Of a stretch of 64,000 nucleotides of DNA, positions 17,713-46,751 are shown piece by piece; within the stretch, counting starts at the first letter, position 1, and each line of letters opens with the position of its first letter. The stretch comes from a bacterium (GTDB lineage Bacteria; UBA10199; 2-02-FULL-44-16; JAAZCA01), in assembly GCA_021810905.1 (NCBI GenBank), contig JAJZQH010000003.1, positions 1,897-65,896 of the forward strand. The letters run 5' to 3'. A model generated the notes under the pieces. The model saw only the letters and a program-made list of their open reading frames with translations. It made no database searches and was not told the DNA's origin. Made by a program: the position numbers and the translations under genes.

Positions 17713-19077
17713 CTATCTCTGCTTCGCGAACATCACCGGCACCTGTATGCCGCCGCCGCTCACGTTCACCTTGAAGCCGCGGTTGGTGGCGCGCGTGATG
17801 AATCCGCCCACGTTGAAGTTGGTGAAGCGCGCACCGTCCCAGTCGTAGTGGACGTAGACGCCGACGTCTGCAATCACGCGCCTGGGTCTGGAGAGAAAAC
17901 CTGCCACGTCAATCGTATTGAGATCGATGCGATCCTGGAGAACCCAGTACTTGTGATCTTTATGAAGTATGCGCGCGAGCCGCGCTGGAATTTTTTTCCC
18001 AACAAATACGTGCTCGCCTCCCATGCCATCAGCGTACTTGAGCACGAGCCTTGAAGGACGATGGAGCGCTTCTTCTTCGTTGCCTCTCAACAATCTCGCA
18101 GGAACGATCGTATCCGCGAGCCTCTCCGCGCGCGCCTCGCCTATGAGGCGCCTGAGAATATTTTTATCCTCGAGCACGGTGAGGATCGTCTTTGGCGCTA
18201 CGAGTCCAGTGATGAACGGACTGTAGTGAGGTGTCTCGGACCGCACGAGGTCGCGGAAGAATCCCGGGGCCTCTTTCAAATCTTTGAGTTCGAAGCTGTA
18301 CGAGAGCTGGAATGCATCCGGAGGCCTTGTATTTGCTCCGATCTGCAGCTTGCCATCCCTGAGACGGACGCATTCGCGCGAGAGGAGTTTGCAATCTTCA
18401 TCGAGCTTCACCTTGAAGGCGGATGGAGAGACGAGCCGCATGTCGAGTCCGATCGCGCGCGCCTTTTTAAGGATCACCTCCTCTTCCCAGTTGTACAGCT
18501 CGTACTGGAAGCGCACGAAACGCCTGCCGAGCCTTCGCATGTTGCGCACTTCGCTCGCGGCGGTATCGAGGCATATCACCTCGCGCCTAAGTATCGGAAA
18601 GAGCTTGAGGATCGTCTCTTGAATGAACGACGAGCGGCCGGTTCCGTCGAAGCCGATATCGTTCACCTCCATGAGCTTCGGCGGATTATCGGGACTGGGC
18701 TTTCCCACCACCGCCATATCGAATCGCAGGCTGCCGATGATGCGCCGCTTTCTGTGCTTGAGCACGCCGAGCTCGCGGATCATATACTCCGAGATAGGCG
18801 TTGGCGGCAGGAGTTCCCTGATCTCGTCGGAAGGCAGCGAGAGAATCCGCATGAGCGATTCGGTGATATCGCGACACGTGCGCCTTATGACCGGAAGATA
18901 CGACGCGGGAAGGATGCGCGGGAGCGCGGAACAATCGTGATCGTTGATGCCGATGAGCCCGGAATCCGCGAACTCGTTCCACAGCTCGGCCTTGAGAGCT
19001 CTGAGGTCGCGCTCCCTGAAGAGCCTCGCGAGCTTCGATGGAAGGGCCTCGTGAAAATGACGGTGTCTTGGAAACAT
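17713..19077 (-). CDS. Circularly permuted ATP-grasp-like (glutathionylspermidine-synthase-like) protein
   Basis: ORF 17713..19077. An E-x-N type motif (KLMEVNDIGFDG) lies in the N-terminal third. A K/G-rich nucleotide-loop-like segment (LVLKYADGMGGEHVFVG) lies near the C-terminus, the reverse of classical ATP-grasp order. Assignment is by motif order only. Confidence 0.45.
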   Translation of the reverse strand: MFPRHRHFHEALPSKLARLFRERDLRALKAELWNEFADSGLIGINDHDCSALPRILPASYLPVIRRTCRDITESLMRILSLPSDEIRELLPPTPISEYMIRELGVLKHRKRRIIGSLRFDMAVVGKPSPDNPPKLMEVNDIGFDGTGRSSFIQETILKLFPILRREVICLDTAASEVRNMRRLGRRFVRFQYELYNWEEEVILKKARAIGLDMRLVSPSAFKVKLDEDCKLLSRECVRLRDGKLQIGANTRPPDAFQLSYSFELKDLKEAPGFFRDLVRSETPHYSPFITGLVAPKTILTVLEDKNILRRLIGEARAERLADTIVPARLLRGNEEEALHRPSRLVLKYADGMGGEHVFVGKKIPARLARILHKDHKYWVLQDRIDLNTIDVAGFLSRPRRVIADVGVYVHYDWDGARFTNFNVGGFITRATNRGFKVNVSGGGIQVPVMFAKQR

Positions 19078-19174: not shown

Positions 19175-21808
19175 CTACAGCAACTCTCTCAACACGGAAG
19201 CATATGGACCTTTCGCTATCTTTTCGAGGGCCGAATGCGAGAGCCGCCGGATCCTTTCTTTGCTCAAGCCGAGCATGCCTCCCACTTCCTCATGCGTATG
19301 ACCTGCGAGGTGGCATTGGAGCACTATGATTTTTTCCCTGTCGCTCAATCCCGATCCCTCAATCGCCATGTCGAGTTTCGTGATGGCATCGCTTCGAAGC
19401 GCGAGATGATCCGGCCCGACCTCTCCCAAATCGGTCACCCGGCCTTCCAACGTGAAATCACCATCTTCTTCGTCCAGCGGCGCAGAGAAGGAGACTTCCC
19501 GCCTTGCTGCCGCTCCCCGCTGTATCATCATTTTAAAGAGCGTCAACGAGAGCGAACGCTTGACATAGGTCTCAAAACTCGCGATCGAGGGATCATAGCG
19601 TTGCGCCAGCTTGTGGAGCTCAATCCTTCCTGCCTGGAGAAGCGCCCCAAAGCTCATGTTCGCCCCGCCAAACCTTGTCATCACGGAAGAAGCAATGCCC
19701 GCCATCAACGGCTCATAAAAAAAGATCAGGTGATCGAGTGCCTGCCGGTCGCCGGACTTGGCCATCCAGAGGAGAAGCATCTTCTCACGCTGATCCAGAA
19801 ATATTCCGCCGCCGCTCCTTCGCTTTGTCGTTATCGTCGAATAGACGTCCATCCCATAGTGCGAAAACGCCCAATCGATCATCCGCCCTTCACTTTCTGA
19901 ACCGCGCCACAGATTGCGGAGATAACCATAGAGGCCCATCAATCCCGAGTTCCTCTCTCCAACATGCGAGCGAAAATCTCCCTGCACGATGCCAGCTGCA
20001 TCCTTTGCGCCCGCTTCGCACATCATTCCAGCGAGATAAAAAGCAATGACCGAATCAGGCACGCGGCGCCAGCCCGAGAGCTTCCCGCCTCTCCGCTCAG
20101 CCAGACGAAGCTGCAGCGCAAATGGCATTTCTTCGGCTGCGGATACACCACAATAATCCAGGATTTTATCGACTACCACTCTCGAATCGTCAGGTGTCTT
20201 CCTCAGACTAAAATGCGTGTAGAGACCTTTCAGCGATTGACCGATCTCCGGGACGACCGTACTCTCCATCTCGCGACAGGAAACAAACCTAACGTGAGGC
20301 AGGCCATTGAGTTCCTGCACCCTCTCCATAAGGCGCAGAATCGTCGCGAGGGGAACCTTCTCCCACGGCCAATTCCTGTTATATCGCAAACAGAGGCACT
20401 GTTGTTCGTAGGAAAGATCTTCAAACCTCTCAACTCCGAGTTGATCGAGCATGAAATCCAGCGCAGAACCTCCGTAGCCTTCCGGAACCCTGAGCCAATA
20501 ATGTTCAAGCAAGCCTGAGAGCGTCGCGCCGAGCTCATCGAGCACGATCTCATTCAGTTTCTTACCTGGCATCGCCCTCAGATGCGGACATTTCAAACCG
20601 TTCTGCTCGGGTAAGAGTCCTCTGGCTATCTCCAGCAGTTTCACCTGCGTGGAAGCAGGCATTCTTTCCCATTTTATGAGTTCGCACTCTAGAAGACCCT
20701 TCAGCTGCACATCCCAGGGAAGGATCTCAAATGACGGAACGCCCACATCATCAAGCAGTGCATCGATTATTCTGCGGGCCTCTTTTCCCCGGTTGAGATA
20801 ATTATTATACAGTCCAATCAGTGTAGAACTGAGTTCTGGCATTTCGATGTCCCTGAAGTGGTCGAAAGTCAAAAACCTCGGATGCACAACGCCAGCCTCA
20901 TTCGCCAAGCGAAAAAGCAGATGTCGCTTAAGCTCCACGCTAATTTTATCCCAGTGGATACGCTGATAACGCAGCCCGATGAATCTCGCCTGTTCCGCCA
21001 GAGACAATTCCTCAAACCTCTGCACTCCTAAATGATCGAGCATGAAATCCACGATCCCGCCTGCACCGTGTTCGTCCGTCCACATCCGAGAATAATGTTT
21101 GTAAAGCCCTTGGCACTGCGCTTTCCATCCCGGCAACCTCATTTTGAAATGATCGAATCCCAGCAGGCGAGGATGTGGCAGGTTTTGAACCAGCGCCATC
21201 TGCTCGAGTATTCTGACCTGTGCACTGAGAGAGAGATGAGAGACATTCTTAAAGGGAGCGGAATCAACCCGCAACCGGTCGATCTCTGCCTGAATGCGCA
21301 ACTCCTCCATGGGATGATACGTGTATCGAAAGGAGCCGAGTCCGCGGGTCCCGAATTTCAGGCAGATATCAGCTATGGAGACGCTTGCCCCCTCGATCAG
21401 CGCGAGCGCCGATGCGACGAGCATCTTTGCGGGTTCGAAAGAGAGTATTCCCAGGATATGGGCGTCATGCGCGATAATGATCGCGTGAGAGGGAGAGTCA
21501 AAGCCGTGGAGTTTGAGCGCATCGCGCGTCATCGGGCTGCTCTCGTCGACAAAACGCATTGCTTGCCGATCGAGCGCCCTCCGGATCTCGGCCGGCGTCT
21601 GCCGGTGTGATCCATCTCGCTCCCCGTATTCATCCGCGGACGACGGCGTTGCAGAGTGCTCTTCGGTGTCAACGCCGCAGGATTCAAGCTCCTGGGATTC
21701 GGCGCAGGGCGGTATCTCGTCGAGGGCAGCTGTCTCTTCAGCAAGGACTAAGCTCCCCAACAGCTCCAGCTGCGAAGCGAGGTCTCCTGTAGATTGCAGC
21801 GCGGCCAT
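19175..21808 (-). CDS. Giant sigma-70-family protein: ~690-aa N-terminal extension with five ~98-aa tandem repeats plus C-terminal sigma2/sigma4 domains
   Basis: ORF 19175..21808 with AAGGGGAGG RBS. The C-terminal ~185 aa carry region 2-like (YDPSIASFETYVKRSL) and region 4 HTH-like (LSDREKIIVLQCHLAGHTHEEVGGMLGLSKERIRRLSHSALEKI) sequence. Repeat anchors GLYKHY, GLYNNY, GLLEHY, GLYTHF and GLYGYL sit at residues 234, 332, 432, 528 and 625. Confidence 0.75.
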   Translation of the reverse strand: MAALQSTGDLASQLELLGSLVLAEETAALDEIPPCAESQELESCGVDTEEHSATPSSADEYGERDGSHRQTPAEIRRALDRQAMRFVDESSPMTRDALKLHGFDSPSHAIIIAHDAHILGILSFEPAKMLVASALALIEGASVSIADICLKFGTRGLGSFRYTYHPMEELRIQAEIDRLRVDSAPFKNVSHLSLSAQVRILEQMALVQNLPHPRLLGFDHFKMRLPGWKAQCQGLYKHYSRMWTDEHGAGGIVDFMLDHLGVQRFEELSLAEQARFIGLRYQRIHWDKISVELKRHLLFRLANEAGVVHPRFLTFDHFRDIEMPELSSTLIGLYNNYLNRGKEARRIIDALLDDVGVPSFEILPWDVQLKGLLECELIKWERMPASTQVKLLEIARGLLPEQNGLKCPHLRAMPGKKLNEIVLDELGATLSGLLEHYWLRVPEGYGGSALDFMLDQLGVERFEDLSYEQQCLCLRYNRNWPWEKVPLATILRLMERVQELNGLPHVRFVSCREMESTVVPEIGQSLKGLYTHFSLRKTPDDSRVVVDKILDYCGVSAAEEMPFALQLRLAERRGGKLSGWRRVPDSVIAFYLAGMMCEAGAKDAAGIVQGDFRSHVGERNSGLMGLYGYLRNLWRGSESEGRMIDWAFSHYGMDVYSTITTKRRSGGGIFLDQREKMLLLWMAKSGDRQALDHLIFFYEPLMAGIASSVMTRFGGANMSFGALLQAGRIELHKLAQRYDPSIASFETYVKRSLSLTLFKMMIQRGAAARREVSFSAPLDEEDGDFTLEGRVTDLGEVGPDHLALRSDAITKLDMAIEGSGLSDREKIIVLQCHLAGHTHEEVGGMLGLSKERIRRLSHSALEKIAKGPYASVLRELL

Positions 21809-21882: not shown

Positions 21883-23403
21883 TCACGGATTATCGGAGCG
21901 CCGTCGTCGGAAATCCTCGAGAAATTCCGCTAGAGGCATTTTGAATTCGCCTGATCCGCCGTTCGCCATCGAGTTCCGCCACATCAATCCAGCAAGGCGC
22001 TGCTGAACGCCCTCGTCCTCTATGACGAGCGCTTCCAGGAGCAGGTTGCGACCGCCTTGCGCGCAGTTCGAGAGAATGAATAAGAGCGGGGCATCATTGC
22101 GCATTTCAAGACGTTCCCGCATCTTTCGCAGATTTGCGAGCAGCGAATTGAAAACCTTCACCGCATTCTTGTTGCCGATGAAGACAATATCGCGGTTCAT
22201 CAAACCGCCCAATCCAGGGGTTTCGCCGGTTTTCAGCCAAAGCTCAAGAGAGCAGCGAAAGCCGTGCTCCCCATAGACCGTCGCAAATCCGGGTCGCAGC
22301 TCAAAGCCCGCGTACCTCATCATCTCGAAGAGCGCTACGTGGAACCCTGGTCTCCACGTATCGTCATCAAAGACGATGAGCATGGAACCGCCTTCCGAGA
22401 TCCGCCTTTCGCATCCGCACAGGAGCTCATGCATCCTGGTGAGGTACATACGATCGAATGTGTGCAGGGGATCCATCTCCCAGTCCATCGCCTCAGGGTG
22501 TACCCACGTCACCAGATCAAAGGTCTCAAGAGAGTCGCCATCATCCGCAAGGCCCTCAATAAATCCGGATTGCACCATCCCACATCCGTCTCCGGCACGG
22601 ACCTGATGAATCTTTCCCTCAGGATCGTCCCCAAGAGCGCACTGAAACTCTTTGAGATTGATCCTGGCGCCCTCCAATTTCCAACTCAAGACATCAAATC
22701 CGATAGTCTTCACGAGACCCGGAAGCGCCAGTCTCATCCCCAAATTCTCGTACCATTTCCCCGCGCCGACCGAAAGTACGGTGCGCGCCTCACACTTCTT
22801 TCCGACTTCCTGATAGAGGAGTATTTGCGCGGTATCGTAATACAATCTTGGGACGAGTTCGTCGGCGCCTCCGCCATTATAGAAATGTTGATAGAGCCTC
22901 AGCAGATCATACCGCTGCGCAGCGACAAGCTGTTCGACCGAGAAGTGATCTCTGCTTGCAGACAGTGCCCGCGGCACTGAGTCCCTCAACTCGATATTTT
23001 TTTGAATCCATTGCGGGAGTTCAATGAGATGGTTCCCCGCAGCTTGCTGCGGGGTTTCCGCCACCATCTCCCTTGAGGGGAGAGGGAAGGGTGAGGGTGA
23101 TCGTCGATGTTGCCGGTGATACCCCGCGGCTTGCCGCGGGGAGCATTCATTTTCCGGAGCCGACTGTTCGCGATCGCGCGTGACTGGCAGTCGCGGAGTA
23201 ACCGGCCCAGGCGCGCCACGATATTGATCGCCAACCGCCACATATTCCGACGCCACGTCATTCAGGCATATACCCTGACGGGAATCGGGCAGCGGTATAA
23301 TATCATCGTCGCAGACCACGAACACTTCCTCTGCACCGGATTCCTCTGCAGGCAGCCCGTCTGCCGCGGCCATTACATCGAGATTTAACGGTTTTACGGT
23401 CAT
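21883..23403 (-). CDS. Hypothetical protein with class-I SAM-methyltransferase-like core; the ORF reads through a MITE copy
   Basis: ORF 21883..23403. Good RBS (AGGAGA) before ATG 23403. Rossmann MTase-like motif series VLSVGAGKW / IGFDV / FDLVTWVHP / ISEGGSMLIVF. Residues ENECSPRQAAGYHRQH...AAGNHLIEL are encoded by the repeat at 23021-23151. Confidence 0.5.
   Translation of the reverse strand: MTVKPLNLDVMAAADGLPAEESGAEEVFVVCDDDIIPLPDSRQGICLNDVASEYVAVGDQYRGAPGPVTPRLPVTRDREQSAPENECSPRQAAGYHRQHRRSPSPFPLPSREMVAETPQQAAGNHLIELPQWIQKNIELRDSVPRALSASRDHFSVEQLVAAQRYDLLRLYQHFYNGGGADELVPRLYYDTAQILLYQEVGKKCEARTVLSVGAGKWYENLGMRLALPGLVKTIGFDVLSWKLEGARINLKEFQCALGDDPEGKIHQVRAGDGCGMVQSGFIEGLADDGDSLETFDLVTWVHPEAMDWEMDPLHTFDRMYLTRMHELLCGCERRISEGGSMLIVFDDDTWRPGFHVALFEMMRYAGFELRPGFATVYGEHGFRCSLELWLKTGETPGLGGLMNRDIVFIGNKNAVKVFNSLLANLRKMRERLEMRNDAPLLFILSNCAQGGRNLLLEALVIEDEGVQQRLAGLMWRNSMANGGSGEFKMPLAEFLEDFRRRRSDNP
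23021..23151 (-). mobile_element. MITE/REP-like three-hairpin element, copy a (inverted, inside ORF 21883..23403)
   Basis: The reverse complement aligns end to end with copies at 46752, 52424 and 55828 (aatgaatgctccccgcggcaagccgcgggg...ccccgcagcaagctgcgggg..catctcattga). Confidence 0.8.
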
Positions 23404-23471
23404 ATATCTCCTGCCCTGACGACATGGACGTTATCGCAGAATTCCTGAAAAAGTTGCTCGATATTCGCACC

Positions 23472-23631
23472 CAAATCCGACACTTGAATTATCACTCAAA
23501 TCCTCCCTCCCTTGATGGGAGGGAGTTTGAGGGAGGGTGACCATGAAGACTTTCGTCACCCAAGGAATGAGTACCACCCTCTCCCTAACCCTCTCCCATC
23601 AAGGGAGAGGGAATTTTTTGTGTCGGATTTC
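23472..23631. repeat. Palindromic hairpin-cluster element bounded by an 11-bp inverted repeat
   Basis: AAATCCGACAC (23472-23482) pairs with GTGTCGGATTT (23621-23631). Internal hairpins are CTCCCTCCC-ttgat-GGGAGGGAG, GGGTGAC..GTCACCC and CCCTCTCCC-atcaa-GGGAGAGGG. It lies between divergent genes. Confidence 0.6.
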
Positions 23632-23695
23632 AGCGCAAAAAAACCCGCAACTTCTTCCCGGCTGCAGCCGATACACGCCGTAATCGAGGAATTCA

Positions 23696-25210
23696 ATGAG
23701 CACTACATTCACTCCAGGTATCGGCGGTTTTCCCGGCGTGATTTCGCCGCAGGAAGGCGTGGATAGCGTCATCCTAACCTCTACGGGCGATTATGACTTC
23801 GCCTGCGAACGCCCGGCGGAGGATGCTGCCGGCGGAAATCTCGGACTCATCGCCATCGACCACGCGCTCGAAGATGCCGGATTTGATCCGGAAAAGATCA
23901 GCACCATCTATCGCGGGAAAAAACGCAGGCCTCATCTCGATACTGAACGTACGCGGATCGTGGAAGGAATGCGCGCATTGGGCGCCGGAGAAAAAGGCGC
24001 GGTCATAGGCATCTCCACCACGACCGACGAATATTTCAGATTTGCCCCGCTCGCAAAACTCCTCAGAATGGCGTTTCCGGACGCCACCCTCATCGCGGGC
24101 GGGGCGCACTTCGTGCGCGAGCGCATCGGCGGATTCGCGGACCCGGTAGAGACTGCGCTCATGATGGGGCTGGTTGACGCCGTTGTGGTGGGACACGCGC
24201 AGCCGTTCGTAGACCTGGTCGTCAAGCACGGAGGCAGAATCGAAGAGGTCGATGCGCCTGGCTTCTATCGGCTCGATCCTGTTTCAAAGCGCGTCACGGG
24301 TCGCGGCAAGGGGAAATTTCCCGACCTGAACAAACTCACTCTTCTCTACGATCCGGTGTCGATGGGCATCCGCACGATGCTCGCCGACGGCTGCAGAAAC
24401 GGCTGCAATTTCTGCACGGTGGCGGGCAGGCCGGTCGCGCTCTTCGATCCCGAGATCGTCGTCAGGGACTTAAGCGCCGCACTACTTGAGCATCAGGACT
24501 TTCGCATCTCGCTCTATGATTCCAATCCGCTCGAACCCGCGCTTCGGAATTTCTATCGCAGCGTCTTTCTGGCGCTTGATGAAACAAACCAGTCCCGAAA
24601 ATTCGCCTATATCGATCCTGCCACGCTGGCCCACGATTTTCTGGAATCTCTGAACACCATATCGTTCGGCACGATCTGGTCCTTCAACGCGGGCCGCGAC
24701 GCGGTAACCGAGAAGCAGGCACGCGCGATCGGCACGAGGTATAAAGGAAAATATAAGGACCAGCGGATGCTCGACGCGGAGAAGAAGGCGCTGATCGAAT
24801 TCATCGATGCCATGAAGATGCTGAAAAAGCTCTATCCCGAAGAGCCGCCGTTCGGCCTGATGCTCTCCTATATCGTGACGCCGTTTGAAACCAGGCAGTC
24901 GGCGATGGCGATGTACGAAGAGATGCGCGAGTTCCTGGCGCTGGCCGACAAATCGATCGTGTTCCGCTTCGCCGTGCATGCCCTCAGGCCCTATCCGGGA
25001 ACGACCCTCAGAAATAAATATTCGAGTGTCATCGACATGGAAGAATTCAATTTCCGCCTCGACCTGGGCGACAGGATCTCGCCGTGGAAGAAGGGCGCGG
25101 CCCCAGCCCTCGCCTTTCATCGTGCAGTGACGATGATTCCCCCGGTCAACGATCAGACAGACTACCTCAAGGCCTTCAAGCGCGCCATTAACACTCATCT
25201 TCCCCGGTGA
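23696..25210 (+). CDS. Radical SAM protein with N-terminal Rossmann/B12-binding-like domain (paralog 1)
   Basis: ORF 23696..25210 with GAGGAA RBS. CRNGCNFC (CxxxCxxC). Long blocks are shared with 31766..33244 (GGAHFVRERIGGFADPVE, GHAQPFVDLVVKH, AGRDAVTE, LSYIVTPF, PYPGT, ISPWK, C-terminal LPR). Confidence 0.7.
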   Translation: MSTTFTPGIGGFPGVISPQEGVDSVILTSTGDYDFACERPAEDAAGGNLGLIAIDHALEDAGFDPEKISTIYRGKKRRPHLDTERTRIVEGMRALGAGEKGAVIGISTTTDEYFRFAPLAKLLRMAFPDATLIAGGAHFVRERIGGFADPVETALMMGLVDAVVVGHAQPFVDLVVKHGGRIEEVDAPGFYRLDPVSKRVTGRGKGKFPDLNKLTLLYDPVSMGIRTMLADGCRNGCNFCTVAGRPVALFDPEIVVRDLSAALLEHQDFRISLYDSNPLEPALRNFYRSVFLALDETNQSRKFAYIDPATLAHDFLESLNTISFGTIWSFNAGRDAVTEKQARAIGTRYKGKYKDQRMLDAEKKALIEFIDAMKMLKKLYPEEPPFGLMLSYIVTPFETRQSAMAMYEEMREFLALADKSIVFRFAVHALRPYPGTTLRNKYSSVIDMEEFNFRLDLGDRISPWKKGAAPALAFHRAVTMIPPVNDQTDYLKAFKRAINTHLPR

Positions 25211-25408
25211 TCGGAAGATCGCTTTCTTCGATAAAGACGCACTCGCAGAGCTCCTTAAATAATTCGACTTGAATTCATTATCAGGGAGTCTAGAATCCGC
25301 CCCATTCATAACCTTTCCCGATTGTTCTCAGCTTAAACGGTTGAACTATGTATGGGCATTCAGGCGTCCAATTGTACGGGTACATGTGGCGAGAGGAGTT
25401 AACGAATC

Positions 25409-27145
25409 ATGCAGAATGCGGGCATATTCTTTGACGTCGCAGAGATCGCATCGTTTCTTGTCATCCTCACCTTACTTGTGAAGCCGCTGGGCGTCTACAT
25501 GGCGCGGGTCTTTGAGGGCGAGAAGGTCCTGCTGAGCCCCGTGATTTCCCCGATAGAGCGGCTCATCTGCCGCATCGCCGGCATCCGACGCGACGACGAG
25601 ATGGACTGGAAGCAATACGCGCTCTCCATGCTCGTCTTCAATGCATTGGGAATCGCCGTGTTACTTGCGATCCTTCTCCTGCAGGGGATGTTACCGCTGA
25701 ACCCGCAGCACCTCCCCGCGTTTTCCTGGGACCTTGCGATCAACACGGCCGTGAGCTTTGTCTCCAATACGAACTGGCAGGCCTACGGCGGCGAATCCGC
25801 CGCGAGTTACGCCACGCAGATGGCGGGCCTCACCGTGCAGAACTTCCTCTCCGCCTCAACCGGCATCGCGGTCGCAATCGCGCTCATCCGCGGGTTCGCG
25901 CGGAGATCGGCGCAGACGATCGGCAACTTCTGGCTCGATATCACAAGATGCGCGCTCTACGTCCTCCTTCCGCTGGCATTCGTATTTTCTATATTTCTCG
26001 TATCGCAAGGCGTGATCCAGAACTTCAGTCAGCCCGTGAAGGCGTCGCTCGTGGAGCAGTATCACTCATCGGAGGAAAAGGTAGTTTCCGAACAGATCAT
26101 CCCGATGGGACCCGTGGCGTCTCAGGAAGCGATCAAGATGCTTGGCACAAACGGCGGCGGTTACTTCAACGCCAACTCCGCGCACCCGTTCGAGAATCCC
26201 ACCCCGCTGACGAATTTTTTTGAAATCCTCATGATGGCGCTCATCGCCGCATCCCTCACCGCTACGTTCGGATACATGGTGGGCGACTCAAAGCAGGGCT
26301 GGGCCATCTATACTGCGATGATGATCATCTTCATCGCCGCGATCGGCATACTCTACTGGGCCGAGGCGAGCGGCAATCCCATACTGCACGGTCTTGGCGC
26401 CTACGGACCGTCGATGGAGGGAAAAGAGGTGCGCATGGGCCTCGGAGGCACAACCCTCTTCAGCGCGACGACCACCGCGGAATCTTGCGGCGCTGTAAAC
26501 GCCATGCACGATTCGCTCACGCCCGTCGGCGGCATGGTCTCGATGACGCTCATGCTCCTGGGAGAGGTGGTGCTGGGCGGCGTCGGCTCCGGCCTCTATA
26601 CCATGCTCGCATTTGCGATCACCGCGGTATTCATAGCAGGTCTCATGATCGGCAGGACGCCGGAGTATCTGGGCAAGAAGATCGAGGTCTTTGAGATCTG
26701 GTCGTCCATGACCACGATCCTCTCCGCGGGAATAGTTGTACTCGTCACCGTGGCTATTGCGCTGAGCACCGAGGCAGGGCTCTCCTCTATCATGAATCCC
26801 GGCGCGCACGGGCTCTCCGAAATCCTCTATGCTTACGCGTCGGCTGCGAATAACAACGGGAGCGCATTCGCCGGGCTCAACGCCAACACAGTCTTCTACA
26901 ATCTGACGACCGCCGCGGCTATGCTCGTGGGGAGGTTCGTACCGGCGGTTGCGGTGCTTGCGCTGTCCGGGTCGCTCGTGAAGAAGAAATACATCCCTCC
27001 GAGCGCCGGCACGCTGCCCACGCACCAGACGGCCTTCGTACTCTGGCTCGTGATCGTGGTGATGATCGTGGGCGCGCTCACGTACTTTCCCGCGTTGTCG
27101 CTGGGTCCGATCATCGAACATATAATAATGAATGGAGTCCGGTGA
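25409..27145 (+). CDS. kdpA: Potassium-transporting ATPase subunit KdpA
   Basis: ORF 25409..27145. Typical KdpA sequence ([39 protein letters not shown]). Confidence 0.93.
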
Positions 27146-27146
27146 C

Positions 27147-29213
27147 ATGGATATTATTCAGAAAAAATCCCATAAATTTTTTCAAAAGGCGCTCCTCTGG
27201 TCCGCGTTCCTCGATTCGCTCAGGAAGCTCTCGCCCAGGCACCTATTGAGAAATCCGGTCATGCTCGCGGTGGAGCTTGGCAGCGTCGTCACGACCGTGA
27301 ATTTCGTCGTCGGATTTTTTTCCAGACCTGCCGATCCGGCATGGTTCACCGGCCTAGTCTCCGTCTGGCTCTGGCTCACGGTCCTGTTTTCGACTTTCGC
27401 GGAATCGCTCGCCGAGGGCAGAGGCAAGGCCCAGGCCGACTCGCTGCGAAAGACGCGTACGGAGGTAATGGCCAAGAAGTTGAAAAGACCGGAACCCGGC
27501 GCCGAATATTCCCTCGTTCCTTCGGACAAACTCATGAAGGGCGACTTCGTCCTCGTAGAGGCGAACGACCCGATTCCCAGCGACGGCGAAGTGATCGAAG
27601 GCGCCGCGCTCGTGGACGAGTCGGCCGTCACCGGGGAATCGGCGCCGGTCGTGCGCGAATCGGGCGGGGACCGGAGCGCCGTCACAGGCGGCACCAAGGT
27701 CATCTCCAACCACATCATCGTGCGCATAACGGTGGACCCCGGTGAGACGTTCCTCGACAGGATGATATGCATGGTCGAGGGCGCGAAAAGGCGCAAGACG
27801 CCGAACGAAGTCGCGCTCGAAGCGCTCCTCCTCGCAATCACCGTGGTCTTTCTGCTCGTCGTGGTGAATCTCAATCCGCTCTCCGCGTACAGCGCGCACG
27901 TGGCCGGCCGCGGTAGCGCGGTCTCGCTCACGGTGCTCGTCGCGCTCTTCGTCTGTCTCGCGCCGACTACCATCGCTGCGCTGCTGCCGGCTATCGGCAT
28001 CGCCGGAATGGATCGCCTCTTTCAGCGCAACGTGATAGCGCTCTCAGGCAAGGCGATCGAGGCCGCGGGAGACGTGAACGTGCTTCTGCTCGACAAAACC
28101 GGCACGATCACGCTCGGCAACCGGCAGGCGGTGGAATTCACGCCGCTCGGCGAGCACACCGATCACGAAGTCGCGGAGGCGTCGCTCATGGCGTCTCTCA
28201 CGGACGAGACGCCCGAGGGCCGAAGCATCGTCGTGCTCGCAAAGCAGAAGTACAATCTGCGCATGCACGAGATGCCTGCTGGAGCCCGCTCCATCCCGTT
28301 CACCGCGCAGAATCGGATGAGCGGCATCGACGTCGACGGGCAGTCTTATCGCAAGGGTGCGCCCGACTCTATCGCAAAGAGCATCGCGAGTCAGGGAAAG
28401 TCCGTACCCGATGGGCTGGATCGCTGCCTCGCGGATATAGAGGGCACCGGTGGCACACCGCTGGTCGTGATGAAAAATGACGAAGTCATCGGCGTGATCC
28501 ACTTGAAGGACATCGTCAAGGGTGGAATCCAGGAGAGATTCGCGGCGCTGCGCAAGATGGGGATCATGACGACGATGATCACCGGCGACAGCTACCTCAC
28601 CGCAGCCACTATCGCTGCCGAGGCCGGCGTGGACGATTTCCAGGCGCAGGCTAAGCCGGAGCAGAAGCTGCACTGGATACGCGGCTATCAGGCCAACGGA
28701 TACATGGTCGCCATGACAGGCGACGGAACGAACGACGCGCCGGCGCTCGCGCAGGCGGACGTCGCCGTTGCGATGAACACGGGCACGCAGGCCGCACGCG
28801 AGGCCGCCAACATCATCGACCTCGATTCCAATCCCACCAAGCTCATGGATATCGTGGAGATCGGAAAGCAGCTGCTCATGACGAGGGGCTCGCTCACCAC
28901 GTTCAGCATCGCCAACGACATTGCAAAATACTTCGCCATCATCCCCGCGGCGCTCTTCACCATCTATCCGCAACTGGGCGTGCTTGGACTGATGCGCCTG
29001 GCTAACCCGCATACGGCGATACTCTCCGCGGTCATTTTCAACGCGATCGTTATACCGCTGCTCATACCGCTGGCGCTCAAGGGCGTGAAATACCGGCCGA
29101 TGCCCGCGGAGAAGCTTTTGATCTACAACCTGCTCGTCTTCGGTGCGGGCGGCATAATCGCGCCGTTCATAGGCATAAAGCTTATCGACATGGCGATATC
29201 GCTGTTCGTTTGA
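27147..29213 (+). CDS. kdpB: Potassium-transporting P-type ATPase subunit KdpB
   Basis: ORF 27132..29213. ATG 27147 is preferred (GGAG 9 nt upstream). P-type motifs DKTGTIT, TGDS and [17 protein letters not shown]. Confidence 0.93.
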
Positions 29214-29223
29214 GGTGAATGAA

Positions 29224-29811
29224 ATGCGAAGAATAAAAACCGCACTGATCCTCTTTGCGCTGCTGGCGATAATAACCGGCGGAATCTATCCGGCGATCGT
29301 TACGCTCGTCGCGCGAACGGCGTTTCCCGCTGCGGCACGCGGCAGCCTGATCTTTGATGCCGGCGGCAACGTGCTCGGTTCCTCGCTCATCGGTCAGCAA
29401 TTCTCGGATGCGAAATACTTCTGGCCGCGGCCATCGTCCACGGCGGATCATCCGTACAACGCGATGGCCTCCGGCGGCTCGCAGCTCGGGCCCACCAATC
29501 CCGAACTCGCCCGCGAAGTATCGGAGAGGATTGACGCGCTGAAGGCCGCCGGCGTCTCCGCGCCCTTTCCTTCGGATCTCGTGACTTCGTCCGCAAGCGG
29601 TCTCGATCCGCACATCTCGCCTGAAGCGGCGCTGGTACAGATACCCCGCGTAGCAAAGGCGCGCGGAATGAACGAAGATGATATTCGCTCGATCGTCTTT
29701 AGAATGATCGAGGATCGGGCGCTGGGATTTATCGGAGCGCCGCGCGTCAACGTGCTTCAGCTCAATATCAAGCTGGGCGACATGGAAGGCAAAGCTTATG
29801 GGAAACGATGA
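29224..29811 (+). CDS. kdpC: Potassium-transporting ATPase subunit KdpC
   Basis: ORF 29215..29811 (GTG in the track). ATG 29224 lies behind GAGGTGA. KdpC motifs GSSLIGQ.F, SGGSQLGPTNP and SASGLDPHISP. Confidence 0.9.
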   Translation: MRRIKTALILFALLAIITGGIYPAIVTLVARTAFPAAARGSLIFDAGGNVLGSSLIGQQFSDAKYFWPRPSSTADHPYNAMASGGSQLGPTNPELAREVSERIDALKAAGVSAPFPSDLVTSSASGLDPHISPEAALVQIPRVAKARGMNEDDIRSIVFRMIEDRALGFIGAPRVNVLQLNIKLGDMEGKAYGKR

Positions 29812-31729
29812 AGAGAGAAGGCCTGAACCCGAATCGCTATTGGAGCTATCTCGCGAGGAAGAGGGAAAGGATCGCGGCAAGCTCACGATTTATTTCGGCG
29901 CCGCGCCCGGCGTGGGAAAGACCTACTCCATGCTCTCCGACGCCAGGTTGAAGAAGAGGGACGGCGTGGACGTGTTGGTCGGCTACTACGAAGCCCACGC
30001 GCGCCCCGAAACTGAGGCGCTGCTTGAAGGCCAGGAAATAATACCGCCGAGGAAGATTGAATATCGCGGCATGGCTCTCAAGGAGATGGACCTGGAGGCC
30101 ATACTCAAGCGCAAACCCGCGCTCGTGCTCGTGGACGAGCTCGCGCACACTAACGCGCCGGAGTCGCGGCACGTCAAGCGCTACCAGGACGTGGAGGAGC
30201 TTTTGGACGCGGGCATCGACGTCTATGCCACGCTCAACGTCCAACACCTGGAGAGTGTCAGCGACCTCATCTTCCAGATCGCGGGCATCCGCGTGCAGGA
30301 AAAAATTCCGGATACGATCTTTCAGTCCGCCGACGAGGTGAAGCTAGTCGATCTCCCCTACGAGGAGCTGCTCCAGCGGCTCAACGAAGGGAAGGTCTAC
30401 GTGAAAGGGATGGCCGAAGAGGCGCTCCGCCGCTTCTTCCAGCCGAGCAATCTCCTCGCGCTCAGACAGATGGCCATGCGCCTCTCGGCGGGACGCGTTG
30501 ACGAGCGCATGCGCATCTACATGCGCGCTCACGCGATCGCGGGGCCCTGGCCCATCTCCGAACGAATACTCGTGAGCGTCTATGCGAGCCCGTATGCGGA
30601 GCGGCTCGTGCGCTCCACGTTCAGGCTCGCATCCGAAATGAACGCGGAATGGGCGGCTATCTACGTGGAAGGCCCGGAGCACGCCCGCCTCTCGGACGAA
30701 GAAAAACGCTGGCTCGAAAACGCGATGGACATCGCGCGCAAGCTGGGCGCGCAGATCGTCTGGACAAAAGGCGACGATCCGGCCGACGAGATCTCCCGCT
30801 ACGCGCAGAACAACAACGTCACCAAGATCGTCATGGGAAAACCCGGGAGGCTCTGGTTCTTCCCCACCATCGTGCGCAAGATCATGTACCGCACCCGCAA
30901 CATCGACATCTTTCTCTTTGCGAGCGAAGGGAAGGACGAGGTCCGTCCGATTCGCGCGAAGCGGCGGCGCGGTTTCAAACTCCGCAATTATCTTTTGGGC
31001 CTTCTCTCCGTTGCTATCGTATCGGGCATCGGCTTTATGCTGAGGGATGTGATCGGTGAGATGAACATCCTCTTCATGATGCTGCTTCCGGTAATCTGGA
31101 CCGCCATCTACCTCGGGAGGGGCGCTTCGATCATAACGGCTCTGGCAAGCATTGTGGCGTTCGATTTCCTCTTCGTCCACCCCTACTACACCTTTACGGT
31201 CCACGAGATCGGAGACATGATTTCATTTTCAGTGTACCTGATCGTCGCCGTTGTCATCAGCAACCTCGCTTCCAAGCTGCGCTACAGGGTTGGTCTGCTC
31301 GCGCAGAGCGAATCGCGCAGCGTAGCGCTATGCGACGCGAGCAGACATCTCGTCACCGCGCGAAACGTGGATCAGGTACTCTCCCTTCTCATCAACCGCG
31401 TGAAGGCGATCCTTCCGTGCGAGGTCGCGATACTGCTTCCCAGCGGCGCACAGCTCTCGGTGGAGGCGGCGACGCCCGAATTCAAGATCGATCAGAAGGA
31501 GCTCTCCGTCGCAACGTGGGTATGGCTGAACGGCAAGAACGCGGGACAGGCCACCGAGACCCTGCCGCAAGCATGGGCCCACTACCTGCCGATGAGGACG
31601 TCCGACGGGATCAAGGGCGTGCTGGGCGTGCACCTCGACGATCCAAAGGAATTCCTGACGCCCGAGAACGACGCAGTGCTCGACGCGCTAGCGGGCCTCG
31701 GAGCGACGGCGATAGAGAGGATAGGGTAA
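29798..31729 (+). CDS. kdpD: KdpD sensor N-terminal portion only (KdpD/Usp domains, 4 TM, GAF-like); no HisKA/HATPase
   Basis: ORF 29798..31729. KLTIYFGAAPGVGKTYSML, a Usp-like middle part and four hydrophobic helices. The GAF-like end ...ALAGLGATAIERIG* terminates where the DHp helix normally starts. Confidence 0.8.
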   Translation: MGNDEERRPEPESLLELSREEEGKDRGKLTIYFGAAPGVGKTYSMLSDARLKKRDGVDVLVGYYEAHARPETEALLEGQEIIPPRKIEYRGMALKEMDLEAILKRKPALVLVDELAHTNAPESRHVKRYQDVEELLDAGIDVYATLNVQHLESVSDLIFQIAGIRVQEKIPDTIFQSADEVKLVDLPYEELLQRLNEGKVYVKGMAEEALRRFFQPSNLLALRQMAMRLSAGRVDERMRIYMRAHAIAGPWPISERILVSVYASPYAERLVRSTFRLASEMNAEWAAIYVEGPEHARLSDEEKRWLENAMDIARKLGAQIVWTKGDDPADEISRYAQNNNVTKIVMGKPGRLWFFPTIVRKIMYRTRNIDIFLFASEGKDEVRPIRAKRRRGFKLRNYLLGLLSVAIVSGIGFMLRDVIGEMNILFMMLLPVIWTAIYLGRGASIITALASIVAFDFLFVHPYYTFTVHEIGDMISFSVYLIVAVVISNLASKLRYRVGLLAQSESRSVALCDASRHLVTARNVDQVLSLLINRVKAILPCEVAILLPSGAQLSVEAATPEFKIDQKELSVATWVWLNGKNAGQATETLPQAWAHYLPMRTSDGIKGVLGVHLDDPKEFLTPENDAVLDALAGLGATAIERIG

Positions 31730-31765
31730 TGAAGAGTGTCGTTTCCTGCTTTCCCCGTAGGTCCG

Positions 31766-33244
31766 TCATCGCGGCAGGTAGCGGAGGATCGCGTCCTCAA
31801 AGTGCGGCAGATAGTCGTCGAGCCTCATCGGCGCGTCGCGATGTGTGACCTCGCGCATGAACCTGAGCGAAGGGCAGGCGTCTCTCTTCCAGGGCGAGAT
31901 GCCGACGCCATCGTCGCGGTCAAAGTCAAAATCCTCCAAGTCGATCGCGTCCGCGAGCCGCGCGCGCAGCGCCGTTCCCGGATAGGGCATGAGCGCCTGC
32001 ACCGAGAGGCCCACCTCCATTTCCGGCGTCGAGAGATCGAGAAACTCCCGCATATCGTCCAGCATCGCCAACGCGGAATCGCGCGTCATAAAGGGCGTTG
32101 TGATATAGGAGAGCGTGAGTTTCCGGGGGACGGCGGCGCTCGCCTTCCGTCGGCGCAGAAGCATGGCTCCGATGAAATTGCGCAACGCGGTTTTCTCCTC
32201 GTCGAGCGTGTGCTGATCCTTGATCTTTCCAAGGTATTTCGTCCCGATCACCCGCGCGTCCTCTTCCAACACGGCGTCACGGCCGGCGTAGAAATACCAG
32301 CAGCCGTACCTCTCAGCTCTCTCGACGACGCGATAAAAATTCTTCAGGAGCGCCGACGGATCGAGATAGACCGCCTTGAGCGAGCGATCCTCGCCTTCAA
32401 TCCTGTCGAAAATTTCGCGATAGAAGTCGTCGAGGTGCGGTAAGAACGGATTGGAATCCGTGAGAGAGAACGTGTGCACGCCCTCCCGGAGCATGGCCCC
32501 GAGCCCACACGCCACGATGTCAACCGTCAGATTCGGAGGCCGTCTCCCCGTGATGAAGCAGAAGTCGCACCCGTTACGGCACTGATCTGCAAGCATCGTG
32601 ATCACCTCTCCTTCGCCCGCGTCACCGCTGGAGGGGAGCCTCCCGACGCGAGGATAGAACCCTGTGCCGCGGCCCACGACCTTGTGATATACAGGATCGA
32701 GCTGATAAAAGCCGGGTGTCGTGACATCCTCTCTCCTGCCCCGGTGCTTGACGACGAGATCCACGAATCCCTGTGCATGTCCGCACACTGCCGCATCGGC
32801 CAACCCCATGCCGAGCGCCGCCTCGACCGGATCCGCGAATCCGGCGATCCGTTCGCGCACGACGTGCGCTCCGCCGAGGACGATCTGGACGCCGGGAAAG
32901 GCCCGCCTGAGCAGCGGCGAAAGCACGGCAAGGACGTGGTAACGGCTCGATGTCGTGGAGATGCCCATGACCGCGCCCGACTCCGCGGCGCCCGCGCTCC
33001 GGAACGCATCGACGACGGCGCTGCTGCCGCCGGAGAGGTCATAGGGCCGGGATGCGTGGGGCTTCAGGATCACGGCGTCTTTGAACCCCTCAGTGATCAG
33101 GGCCTCTTTTATGGTTTCGAGCCCGAGGTGTTCGGAGGCGGCATCCGCGGGCCTCGCAGGGTCCAGCTCAAAATCGCCGGTCGAGGCGAGGATCACCGAA
33201 CTCACATCCGGCTGCGGCATGATGATGGCAGGGGCCATGGGCAT
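31766..33244 (-). CDS. Radical SAM protein with N-terminal Rossmann/B12-binding-like domain (paralog 2)
   Basis: ORF 31766..33244. CRNGCDFC. Collinear similarity to 23696..25210 along the whole length. Same C-terminal LPR. Confidence 0.7.
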   Translation of the reverse strand: MPMAPAIIMPQPDVSSVILASTGDFELDPARPADAASEHLGLETIKEALITEGFKDAVILKPHASRPYDLSGGSSAVVDAFRSAGAAESGAVMGISTTSSRYHVLAVLSPLLRRAFPGVQIVLGGAHVVRERIAGFADPVEAALGMGLADAAVCGHAQGFVDLVVKHRGRREDVTTPGFYQLDPVYHKVVGRGTGFYPRVGRLPSSGDAGEGEVITMLADQCRNGCDFCFITGRRPPNLTVDIVACGLGAMLREGVHTFSLTDSNPFLPHLDDFYREIFDRIEGEDRSLKAVYLDPSALLKNFYRVVERAERYGCWYFYAGRDAVLEEDARVIGTKYLGKIKDQHTLDEEKTALRNFIGAMLLRRRKASAAVPRKLTLSYITTPFMTRDSALAMLDDMREFLDLSTPEMEVGLSVQALMPYPGTALRARLADAIDLEDFDFDRDDGVGISPWKRDACPSLRFMREVTHRDAPMRLDDYLPHFEDAILRYLPR

Positions 33245-39402: not shown

Positions 39403-40374
39403 TTAAGGACAGAAGGTCATGAGGAACTGCGTATTGCCGGCGCAATTGTGCAGCCCCACGACATCATCATATGAATACGCATACACGCCGCCGGTGCACA
39501 TGCTGTGTATGGCTGCCACGTATTTTGTCGCAGCCACGGGACCCGCGCGGCAGGCGCCCGGGTCGATTGGAGGAGTCGGGCAGCAGTACATCACGGCAGC
39601 GTCGCCCTGCTCGGAGAGGCCCTCGCCGTTGTATCCTGTGTTGTTGGGCCAGTTGAGTTTCTTGCACGGAGAATAGCACCCAAGCGCGGTGTCGGGACTT
39701 GCCGCGTCGAGGACCCTCAGATCCTCGTTGTTATACTCGGGATGCACATCTACCTGTCCCTGGCTTAAGTTCTCGTCGGTCGGGCAGCCGCTTAGATTGA
39801 GGTTTGTGCAGTCGATGGTATTGCAGGAAGAGCAATCCGCGTTGATGCAGGTTGAACCTCCTCCGCCGACGATGGTGACTTTGTAAGGCAAGGAATAACC
39901 GTCGACAGCGCTCGTGTCCCAAGAGGTGATCGGCGGGAGCTTCTGTGCCGGCGCAGAGGGATTCACCGCGCACTGCGTGGGATCGGCATTGGTGCAACCC
40001 CACGTGGCCTCAAATTTGGAATCAATGGGCGGGGCACAGCCTGCTGCCGGGCACGGGTCCGAGCTCTGACCCAACGAGCAGTTCTGGCTGTTGGCATCGC
40101 AACCTGTCTTGGGCCAGAAGCGCGTCGACGCAAGCCCTATATCAGGAATGTTGTAATCCACGTATCCGCCCTTGGCCAATTGAGTGACGGCGGCAGTTCC
40201 GGTGGGCATGTTCGATTGCTGGATCCAGATCGTATAAGAGCAGTTGTTGACGATTCGGAAGAGCGCGGTCTGCGTGGGAAGTCCGCCGCCGCCCCCGCCG
40301 CTGCCGCTTCCTCCTCCACAGCCGAAGCAGAACGCCAATGCGATTATAAGAGACAATGGGCGAAAAATTCTCAT
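39403..40374 (-). CDS. Thaumatin-like (PR-5 family) lipoprotein
   Basis: ORF 39403..40374. Lipobox AFCFGCGGG. Collinear with plant thaumatin by eye: FRIVNNCSYTIW, RFWPKTGC, PPIDSKFEATW, DTSAVDGYSLPYKV, MYCCP, AYSYDD...FLMTFCP*. Confidence 0.8.
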   Translation of the reverse strand: MRIFRPLSLIIALAFCFGCGGGSGSGGGGGGLPTQTALFRIVNNCSYTIWIQQSNMPTGTAAVTQLAKGGYVDYNIPDIGLASTRFWPKTGCDANSQNCSLGQSSDPCPAAGCAPPIDSKFEATWGCTNADPTQCAVNPSAPAQKLPPITSWDTSAVDGYSLPYKVTIVGGGGSTCINADCSSCNTIDCTNLNLSGCPTDENLSQGQVDVHPEYNNEDLRVLDAASPDTALGCYSPCKKLNWPNNTGYNGEGLSEQGDAAVMYCCPTPPIDPGACRAGPVAATKYVAAIHSMCTGGVYAYSYDDVVGLHNCAGNTQFLMTFCP

Positions 40375-40481
40375 GGTAATATCCCCCTGAGCGGTTCGAC
40401 ACTGTAGAATATGATCGGGGACTATAGACTAATAATTATAGAAATCATCAGGAAAATGACTGGCGAAGTTACACAGGTTCT

Positions 40482-41147
40482 TCAACTCGGCTTGCTGTGG
40501 CGCACATCCCTCCCCTTTGCCGTGAATATCGCGAGTTCCGCGATATTGGTGGAGTGATCCGCCATTCGTTCGAGATAGCGGACGATCGAAGTCGCCGGAA
40601 ACAGCCGGTTCAGATTTTCAGGCTCCTTTTCTGCGCGCTCCAGCAATTCCTTCACGTAATACTCGGTGAGATCGTCCACCACGTCGTCGTTATTGAGCAC
40701 TCCCTCGGCCTTTGCCGCGTTGGAGTTGACGAACGCGTCGATGCTGTCCTTGAGCATCATCTGCACATTGTTCGACATCTGAGTGAGATCGATAGGTGAG
40801 TCCCCGTGCTTCACGATATCTATCACGCGGCTCGCCGTGTTGACGGCTAGGTCCCCCACGCGCTCCAGATCCGTCACTATCTTTAGGCCGCGTGTGATAA
40901 AGCGCAGGTCCCACGCCGCGGGCTGGTAGCGCGCAAGCAGCTCTATGCACTGTTCGTCGATGGATACCTCCAGCGCGTTGACCGCATGATCGCTCTCGAT
41001 TATCTGCTGCGCGAGGGCCGTATCGCGCGAGGCCAGGGCCTTCATGCAATCCGCAACCATCGCCTCAACTTTGGATCCCATGAGCAGGATCTGCTGCTTG
41101 AGCGCCTCGATTGCCTCGTCAAAGTGACGATCGATGTGGTGTTCCAT
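40482..41147 (-). CDS. phoU: Phosphate signalling regulator PhoU
   Basis: ORF 40482..41147. Two PhoU repeats (ESDHAVNALEVSIDEQC.., DLERVGDLAVN; DDVVDDL.., YLERMADHSTNIAE). Confidence 0.92.
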   Translation of the reverse strand: MEHHIDRHFDEAIEALKQQILLMGSKVEAMVADCMKALASRDTALAQQIIESDHAVNALEVSIDEQCIELLARYQPAAWDLRFITRGLKIVTDLERVGDLAVNTASRVIDIVKHGDSPIDLTQMSNNVQMMLKDSIDAFVNSNAAKAEGVLNNDDVVDDLTEYYVKELLERAEKEPENLNRLFPATSIVRYLERMADHSTNIAELAIFTAKGRDVRHSKPS

Positions 41148-41155
41148 GATTCCTC

Positions 41156-41908
41156 CTATCCATAGCGTCCGGATATATAGTCTTCAGTGCGTTCGTCGCG
41201 CGGCGCGGTGAAGAGCTGCGTGGTCTTTCCGAATTCTATGAGTTCGCCGAGCAGCATAAAACCGCAGTCCTCGGAGACGCGCGCGGCCTGCTGCATGTTG
41301 TGCGTAACGATGACGATCGTGTATTCGCTCCTGAGGTCCTGCATCAGCTCTTCGATGTGCGCGGTGGCTATAGGGTCGAGCGCCGAGCACGGCTCGTCCA
41401 TGAGCAGGATCTCGGGCTTTGTGGCGAGCGCCCTCGCGATGCAGAGGCGCTGCTGCTGCTCGCCCGAGAGGGAGAGCGCGCCCGTCTTGAGCTTGTCCTT
41501 GAGATCCTCCCACAGCCCCACTCCCGTGAGGCATTTCTCGACTGTCTCCTCCACCTGCGACCTGTTGCCGATACCGTGGATTCTCATCCCGTAAGCGATG
41601 TTCTCGAAAATGTTCAGCGGAAACGGATTCGGGCGCTGGAAGACCATGCCTACGGTCCTGCGCAACTTGAGGATATCCTCATCGAGCAGCGGGCGACCCA
41701 GCACGCTCACGTCTCCCGTGATGCGCACGCCGGGGATGAGGTCGTTCATGCGGTTGAATACGCGAAGCAAAGTGGACTTGCCGCAACCCGAAGGTCCGAT
41801 GATCGAGGTGATGCGTTTGGGCGCAATGGAGACGGACACGGACTTCAGCGCATGGAAGTCGCCATAGAACAAGTTCAGGTCTGTGCAGGTTATGGAATCC
41901 ATCCTCAT
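41156..41908 (-). CDS. pstB: Phosphate ABC transporter ATP-binding protein PstB (canonical)
   Basis: ORF 41156..41908. [10 protein letters not shown]-loop [33 protein letters not shown] and H-loop [10 protein letters not shown]. Confidence 0.93.
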
Positions 41909-44390: not shown

Positions 44391-44430
44391 GCCTTCGTCG
44401 CCTCAGACGCCGGCTCCTCGTCTGCCCTCC

Positions 44431-44467
44431 GGACGCCGCGTTATTAGAGGCTTAGAAAGCGGCGTCC
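44431..44467 (-). other. Intercistronic hairpin between pstS and pstC
   Basis: 9-bp GC-rich stem GGACGCCGC (44431-44439) / GCGGCGTCC (44459-44467) with a 19-nt loop. No T-run, so a possible processing or attenuation element. Confidence 0.35.
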
Positions 44468-44510
44468 TCCGAGCGCCGAGAAAACTCCATCCCGTCGCTC
44501 GCCTCCAGAG

Positions 44511-45329: not shown

Positions 45330-45384
45330 GTGATGCCTCCGTTTTGTTATCAAGCAATTGAGTAATGAACCAACATGAGTCACA

Positions 45385-45412
45385 TGTTCGAAATTTGTTA
45401 AAAAAATGTTAA
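45385..45412 (-). promoter_or_regulatory. Pho-box-like triple direct repeat upstream of pstS
   Basis: The minus strand reads TTAACA-ttttt-TTAACA-aattt-CGAACA (hexamers every 11 bp), 56-83 nt upstream of ATG 45329. Confidence 0.6.
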
Positions 45413-45442
45413 GGCGGCTTTATCGTCATAAAGCAAGGCATT

Positions 45443-46591: not shown

Positions 46592-46698
46592 CTAACGCTC
46601 CTTTCCTCACATTGAAAGTGCTCGTGATTGACGACGAGGATGACCTGCAGGACTGCGCCACGACCTGGACAATATAGATCAAATCGTTACGAACGCCT

Positions 46699-46726: not shown

Positions 46727-46751
46727 TGCGTGAACTTGTAGCTCATCAAGA

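Follow-up and report, generated by a model that had tools for sequence, protein, structure and literature searches.

Why should two related radical S-adenosylmethionine (SAM) genes stand in inverted orientation on either side of a potassium-uptake locus? The question is raised by a stretch of bacterial DNA of 64,000 nucleotides (assembly GCA_021810905.1, contig JAJZQH010000003.1, positions 1,897 to 65,896), which as a whole is called the window here and to which all coordinates refer. The initial annotation, made from the letters alone, described two proteins of about 500 aa, named A and B in the following, which face each other across kdpABC and a kdpD-like gene, and proposed for this arrangement an old duplication around a mobile kdp cassette, a recombination substrate, or a functional link to K+ or osmotic physiology. 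Our analysis points to a plainer answer: it is likely that A and B belong to an uncharacterised family of radical SAM enzymes of the class B type and stand alone, that the bracket which they form is peculiar to this genome, and that no functional tie connects them to kdp. The rare subfamily is new, the architecture of its enzymes is very well known, and the striking arrangement is not conserved.

Two old paralogs of a rare family

Both genes are present as collinear open reading frames (ORFs), and the estimate by eye that their products are about half identical proved accurate, as BLASTP aligned them end to end with 48% identity (238/493 residues, 6 gaps, E 9e-144). By sequence, the paralogy of A and B is far beyond chance. 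The public gene call lets B start two codons later, leading to a protein of 490 aa. All motifs that had been listed for the pair (CRNGC[ND]FC, GGAH.VRERI.GFADPVE, GHAQ.FVDLVVKH, AGRDAV.E, LSYI.TPF, PYPGT and ISPWK) are found in A as well as in B, and both translations end in LPR, a terminus that is not kept across the wider family in a 14-member alignment.

The subfamily had been called unrecognised, and profile searches of A and B against curated libraries indeed gave nothing at threshold. In Pfam, the B12-binding domain PF02310 scored 19.6 bits in A and 17.5 bits in B against a cut-off of 32.1, and the Radical_SAM domain PF04055 reached 24.5 bits in B against a gathering score of 29.5 and did not match A. 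Among 46 family members searched at E<=0.01, PF02310 was matched by 30 (best E 3.5e-9) and PF04055 by 21, and a few distant members lie above the gathering scores for both domains. The sole NCBIfam model touched was TIGR04072, which describes a lipid-biosynthesis, ladderane-associated B12-binding/radical SAM protein of a generally similar architecture. It was the best match of A with 15.7 bits, gave no match with B, and reached at most 37.9 bits in ten distant members; with a cut-off of 360 bits neither A nor the distant members belong to it. None of the named NCBIfam B12/radical SAM families (TIGR04072, TIGR04013, PhpK, ApyD and others) scored at its curated cut-off, and a PADLOC scan of the family returned nothing.

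The family is rare and comprises about 100-160 clusters. A word-indexed search of 5.8 billion proteins yielded 13 proteins related to A and 6 related to B, all of them unnamed or "hypothetical". When 1.84 billion cluster representatives were searched exhaustively with a profile, 107 proteins were returned at E<=1e-30, a number that rises to 161 at E<=1e-10 and to 690 at E<=1e-3. When one genome each of 185,579 species was scanned, three loci were found, all in metagenome-assembled genomes (labelled "Bdellovibrio sp.", "bacterium" and "Candidatus Woesearchaeota"); a metagenome scan with the 14-sequence alignment gave 6 loci.

A neighbour-joining tree of 28 family members pairs A with the family protein P0002 (bootstrap support 93%) and B with P0004 (support 90%), and unites these four proteins with 94% bootstrap. 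Since each paralog is thus nearer to a relative from another organism, the split between A and B predates the divergence of those organisms, and the duplication is old, as had been suspected. A third subclade consists of P0158 and P0005. The two metagenomes that contain P0004 also contain P0158 (contigs L004/L005 and L025/L026; JGI samples 3300044698 and 3300037424), and organisms of this lineage may therefore carry several family paralogs on separate loci. With a tetranucleotide similarity of 0.87, P0004 and P0158 may come from one genome or from two.

Predicted fold and putative reaction

An AlphaFold2 model built on the 14-member alignment (mean predicted local distance difference test, pLDDT, 84.9; predicted template modelling score, pTM, 0.84) has the partial (beta/alpha)6 TIM-barrel core fold of the radical SAM superfamily and, ahead of this core, an N-terminal domain of the Rossmann, cobalamin-binding type, which is the arrangement of class B enzymes. 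The ten best Foldseek matches are all TsrM, TokK or CysS (E 4e-15 to 2e-11). Together with the sub-threshold Pfam scores, this match to cobalamin-type radical SAM enzymes supports the earlier description of A and B as radical SAM proteins with a B12-binding-like N-terminal half. In the structure comparison of the model, the following pairs of values were obtained: TsrM (21.7; 384), CysS (20.8; 375), MgmA (20.8; 338), AprD4 (20.3; 385), RimO (18.4; 319), TokK (16.6; 367), MiaB (16.0; 324) and OxsB (14.7; 419).

The likeness to the class B radical SAM methyltransferases TsrM (6wte), TokK (7kdx), CysS (9n1b) and MgmA (9ccb) is one of structure, as the family shares only 11-16% sequence identity with them and no sequence model ties it to any of the four above threshold, the best profile match being TokK with an E-value of 7e-4. 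The family proteins are also shorter, with about 500 aa compared to 570-680, and differ in the C-terminal region. Moreover, the genes of the four known enzymes lie in antibiotic or methanogenesis clusters, whereas those of the family stand alone. Another difference concerns the GGE motif of the four methyltransferases, in the place of which the family has DSNP. When the PDB was searched with family profiles, weak matches to the radical SAM core were returned, the best one to a viperin-like enzyme (E 1e-5), and in this profile alignment the invariant D275-S-N277-P of the family aligns to the GGEP of the viperin-like enzyme, so that the SAM-binding GGE expected after strand beta2 is apparently absent. 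A reading as prokaryotic viperin or defence protein was dropped because of the two-domain class-B-like architecture and the blank PADLOC scan. In the methylthiotransferases RimO and MiaB (4jc0, 7mjv), an auxiliary cluster depends on three cysteines near the N terminus, and a TRAM domain forms the C terminus; the family has no extra conserved cysteines, and TRAM was unmatched in the Pfam scans.

The cluster motif CX3CX2C (C233, C237 and C240 in A) is invariant in the 14-sequence and in the 46-sequence alignment. Further invariant residues of the 14-member alignment are, in the numbering of A, G105-x-S107, G135-G136-x-H138, D275-x-N277, K302, G333-R334, S391, P432-x-P434-G435 and W464. The classical B12 fingerprint includes SxL-(26-28)-GG, and the spacing of 28 residues from S107 to G135, which is conserved in the family, fits this part of it. 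No conserved cysteine beyond CX3CX2C is present in the 14-member alignment, and two members, P0008 and P0011, have only three cysteines in total. Therefore, a single Fe-S cluster and no auxiliary cluster can be assumed.

On this basis A and B are probably methyltransferases. In the reaction that we propose, C233, C237 and C240 would hold a single [4Fe-4S] cluster, which would reductively cleave SAM and thereby generate a 5'-deoxyadenosyl radical. This radical would remove a hydrogen from an unactivated substrate carbon, and a cobalamin in the N-terminal domain would most probably deliver the methyl group, like in TokK, CysS and MgmA. As the genes stand alone and have no conserved neighbour, the enzymes probably act on some general molecule of the cell, encoded elsewhere, rather than on the product of a local cluster. 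The family proteins are soluble and, with a median isoelectric point of 6.3, slightly acidic, which gives no hint at a nucleic-acid substrate.

The same fold could also serve another chemistry, in which the Rossmann domain carries no cobalamin and the radical reaction is not a methylation but a dehydration, a rearrangement or the formation of a C-C bond. AprD4 (6fd2), a radical SAM 1,2-diol dehydratase with 14% identity to the family protein, is the example at hand. Its N-terminal domain does not bind cobalamin, and it works in an aminoglycoside pathway; aminoglycoside genes were not found near family members in the loci examined. Judged by this case, the fold alone does not prove cobalamin binding. 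The PF02310 scores of A and B below threshold and the replacement of GGE by DSNP would agree with such a chemistry, but the family keeps the distance between the serine and the GG of the B12 fingerprint without exception, the top Foldseek matches are all cobalamin-bound methyltransferases, and PF02310 matches about two thirds of the members. We regard a non-methylating reaction as the less likely but nevertheless a real alternative.

The bracket around kdp

The genomic surroundings of the family were assembled from look-ups of the encoding contigs, from the genome scan and from the metagenome scan, which together gave 15 independent contexts. When A, B, KdpA to KdpD and the flanking proteins of the window were compared by tblastn with 13 of these loci, exactly one family gene was found in each, and neither kdp genes nor a second family copy nor any of the flanking genes of the window; the two further contexts are alike. 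All-against-all clustering of the neighbouring ORFs of 14 loci revealed no neighbour that recurs, apart from those shared by pairs of closely related contigs. An FGE-sulfatase gene precedes P0002, the only A-type orthologue, and what follows P0002 is a convergent gene instead of kdpA; the B-type orthologue P0004 lies between a metallophosphoesterase gene and a pyridoxal-phosphate (PLP)-enzyme gene. Conversely, the closest kdp locus that was found (L028; KdpA 73%, KdpB 81% and KdpD-like protein 69% identical to those of the window) has no radical SAM gene beside it, its flanks being a gene for a 313-aa protein and holA. Thus, the paralogs are unlinked to kdp in the other loci and show no conserved pairing. 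This is the outcome that the initial annotation had itself named as a refutation, and it speaks against a functional link behind the bracket.

Isolated coincidences among the neighbours are too few to read a function from them. They comprise dxs, hybrid histidine kinases encoded close to P0157 and to P0158, and an ATP-grasp-like gene found in the vicinity of both A and P0005. The gene dxs, encoding 1-deoxy-D-xylulose 5-phosphate (DXP) synthase, the first step of the methylerythritol phosphate (MEP) pathway, lies within about 3 kb of P0013 and of P0158 (L017 7256-9154 and L026 3772-5739). It is the only metabolic gene that was met twice, in unrelated loci, and these are too few cases for a link to isoprenoids. 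The ATP-grasp-like gene is a 454-aa ORF of the minus strand at 17713-19077 with a weak match to the glutathione-synthase ATP-binding domain (22 bits). Its very close homologue (E 1.5e-194) at L016 7409-8764 is located 3.5 kb from the family member P0005, which makes it the only neighbour common to the window and to a locus of a different subclade; this may reflect related organisms.

The genes enclosed by A and B are listed in Table 1.

Table 1. Positions of the paralogs, the enclosed kdp genes and two intergenic elements in the window
Feature	Position	Strand	Characteristics
Nested palindromic element resembling repetitive extragenic palindromes (REP-like)	23464..23639		intergenic, upstream of A; inverted repeats I3 and I8; outside the enzyme genes
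Paralog A	23696..25210	+	504 aa; N-terminal Rossmann (B12-binding-like) domain, radical SAM core, C-terminal helical region; cluster motif C233-x3-C237-x2-C240
Promoter-like site TTGAAT-16-TAGAAT	25269..25296	+	within the 199 bp that separate A from kdpA; consensus match only
kdpA, K+-translocating subunit	25409..27145	+	PF03814, 790.6 bits; 73% identical to kdpA of L028
kdpB, P-type ATPase subunit	27132..29213	+	E1-E2_ATPase and HAD Hydrolase domains; 81% identical to kdpB of L028
kdpC	29215..29811	+	PF02669, 230 bits
KdpD-like sensor	29798..31729	+	643 aa; KdpD-N, Usp, DUF4118 and GAF (GAF_3) domains
Paralog B	31766..33244	-	492 aa; architecture as in A; cluster motif C220-x3-C224-x2-C227

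The initial annotation spoke of a complete kdp locus. This holds for kdpA, kdpB and kdpC, which are present in order and at full length (the public gene call starts kdpB at 27147), but not for the rest of the system: compared with the E. coli-type arrangement of kdpFABC and kdpDE, the kinase half of KdpD is missing, as no HisKA or HATPase domain was found by Pfam, no kdpE adjoins the locus, and the 199-bp gap preceding kdpA holds no KdpF-like small hydrophobic ORF. With 535 bits for NF007793 (cut-off 1123) and 365 bits for NF038185 (cut-off 550), the KdpD-like protein stays under the NCBIfam cut-offs for KdpD as well as for the short "KdpD_non_kinase" model. Nevertheless, it is not a truncated protein, since all 119 other homologues among the matches listed have 599-656 aa, are 54-68% identical, share the same domain set and have no kinase domain on record. 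Among the matches listed, the few with a source name come from Methanoperedens, Zixibacteria and Dadabacteria. A cut of kdpD by a rearrangement involving B, the stop codon of which lies 36 bp from that of the convergent KdpD-like gene, was rejected because the kinase-less form of about 644 aa is widespread and conserved. On our reading, the kdp genes make up a self-contained operon for K+ uptake of an ordinary kind, with a KdpD-like sensor whose kinase-less form is widespread.

The promoter-like site between A and kdpA hints, as a sequence match, at a promoter of its own for kdp; the number of such matches in this region does not exceed that expected from shuffled sequence. A search of the same gap for terminator-like sites found none. 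No Rfam family, including the cobalamin and c-di-AMP riboswitches, reached the gathering threshold in the window, and permissive scans near A, near B and in the kdpA leader revealed no riboswitch; the E-value scans returned only spurious matches of miRNA models on a palindromic repeat. A G/C-rich palindrome of 23 nt (CCCTCTCCC-n5-GGGAGAGGG) is a REP-like sequence with 6 sites in the window and 0 expected in shuffles (23064-23086, 23503-23525, 23589-23611, 46838-46860, 52490-52512 and 55894-55916). Two of the copies form the nested hairpin element upstream of A, and another one lies inside a 506-aa ORF (21883-23403), so that the N-terminal 110 or so codons of this ORF may be spurious.

How, then, did two paralogs come to enclose an operon that was not found beside their relatives? 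A historical remnant is a less likely but plausible answer, according to which an ancient local duplication, inverted or tandem, was followed by the placement of kdp between the copies or by a rearrangement that moved it there, and the arrangement has no present function. It would explain why two family genes lie within 10 kb of each other, which, as we infer, would be an unlikely coincidence in a genome of a few Mb, and it agrees with the joint clade of A, B, P0002 and P0004, which makes A and B mutually closest paralogs in the window. That the region can change is seen from namZ: on L004, from a related organism, a distance of 3.4 kb separates the B-type gene from a namZ with 73-79% identity to that of the window, and the two genes have the same relative orientation as B and namZ in the window, where 16 kb including A and kdp lie between them, so that the interval between namZ and B is variable. 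Against this history stand the closer relatives of each paralog in other organisms, the P0004 contig, which lacks an A-type gene in the 6.9 kb upstream and the 10 kb downstream, the convergent gene instead of kdpA behind P0002, and the lack of insertion scars and repeats around kdp. A mobile or invertible kdp cassette, with the inverted paralogs as recombination arms or island ends, had been suggested by the symmetry of the arrangement, and the kdp genes seem to be prone to transfer across domains, as homologues with 60-62% identity occur in Methanoperedens. We consider it extremely improbable. At the DNA level, A and B share 56% identity (43% when third codon positions alone are counted), their longest exact match measures 16 nt and their best local stretch has 70% identity over 304 nt, which is too little for a substrate of homologous recombination. 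Furthermore, the window contains no tRNA, none of its ORFs encodes an integrase or a transposase, and no direct repeats flank kdp. The GC content at third codon positions (GC3) is 0.79-0.80 in kdpA, kdpB and the KdpD-like gene, 0.67 in kdpC, 0.78 in B and 0.71 in A, compared to 0.58-0.81 in the window overall and 0.74-0.81 in its pst, ABC-F, PGM and two-component genes. A foreign origin of kdp by composition was rejected on these values, which lie within the range of the window and for three of the four genes equal those of core genes.

A present link to K+ or osmotic physiology would require that A is co-transcribed with kdpABC and that one or both enzymes modify a component or regulator of Kdp or make a K+-responsive metabolite. 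The orientation of A on the strand of kdpA, the short gap without a predicted terminator and the atypical regulation indicated by a KdpD-like sensor without kinase domain and without adjacent kdpE would be in line with it. We nevertheless judge it very improbable, as none of the 15 family loci has kdp, the kdp genes of L028 do without a radical SAM gene, B converges on the KdpD-like gene and so cannot share a transcript with it, a promoter-like site separates A from kdpA, the kinase-less KdpD-like form is common in many lineages without this enzyme family, and no riboswitch was found in either region by the Rfam scans. Improbable as well, if slightly less so, is a wider proposal in which the family, with DSNP for GGE and so far seen hardly anywhere but in uncultured lineages, would represent a cobalamin-type radical SAM branch of new function that carries out an undescribed modification of a common molecule of the cell, with A read through into kdp and this one copy thereby tied to K+ limitation. 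If a new cobalamin-dependent reaction were true, A and B would be a convenient pair for studying the divergence of specificity.

Two stand-alone enzymes of an uncharacterised family, enclosing kdp in this genome without a functional tie, thus remain the likely reading, and several points weigh against it. The usual GGE motif for SAM binding is apparently swapped for the invariant D-S-N-P, and the chemistry may be atypical. A lies on the strand of kdpA only 199 bp upstream of it, and with no terminator-like site in the gap read-through into kdp is possible. The distance of 6.6 kb between the paralogs is improbable under random placement, and a historical cause, for example a local duplication, may underlie it. 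Finally, the comparison of linkage was made on contigs rather than on complete genomes of close relatives, and several of these contigs are short (3-6 kb in the case of L013, L015 and L027). As it stands, the finding carries little weight: there are a great many radical SAM subfamilies without characterised members, and the arrangement around kdp is not conserved. A defined rare family with a confident structural model and invariant residues could, on the other hand, join the classification schemes of radical SAM enzymes, and the negative result for the bracket guards against over-reading it as a mobile element or an osmoregulatory module.

Other features of the window

Before A in the window, a gene on the minus strand (19175-21808) encodes a protein of 877 aa, in which a C-terminal domain of the sigma-70/extracytoplasmic function (ECF) type (residues ~690-866) is the sole recognisable part; its N-terminal extension of about 670 aa had no family match. 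Beyond B, at higher coordinates, a phosphate-starvation cluster extends from 39403 to 52274, with phoU, two pstB-like ATPases, permeases, a porin of the OprO/P type, an alkaline phosphatase and a PhoB/PhoR-like two-component pair. Within this cluster, a protein of 323 aa (39403-40374) has a thaumatin domain, which is unusual for bacteria. The end of the window (61800-64000) has a GC content of 0.47, compared to 0.53-0.63 elsewhere, and its ORFs are all short; the one at 61834-62283 on the minus strand resembles NYN/LabA-like sequences by eye. This part may be a foreign or degraded segment.

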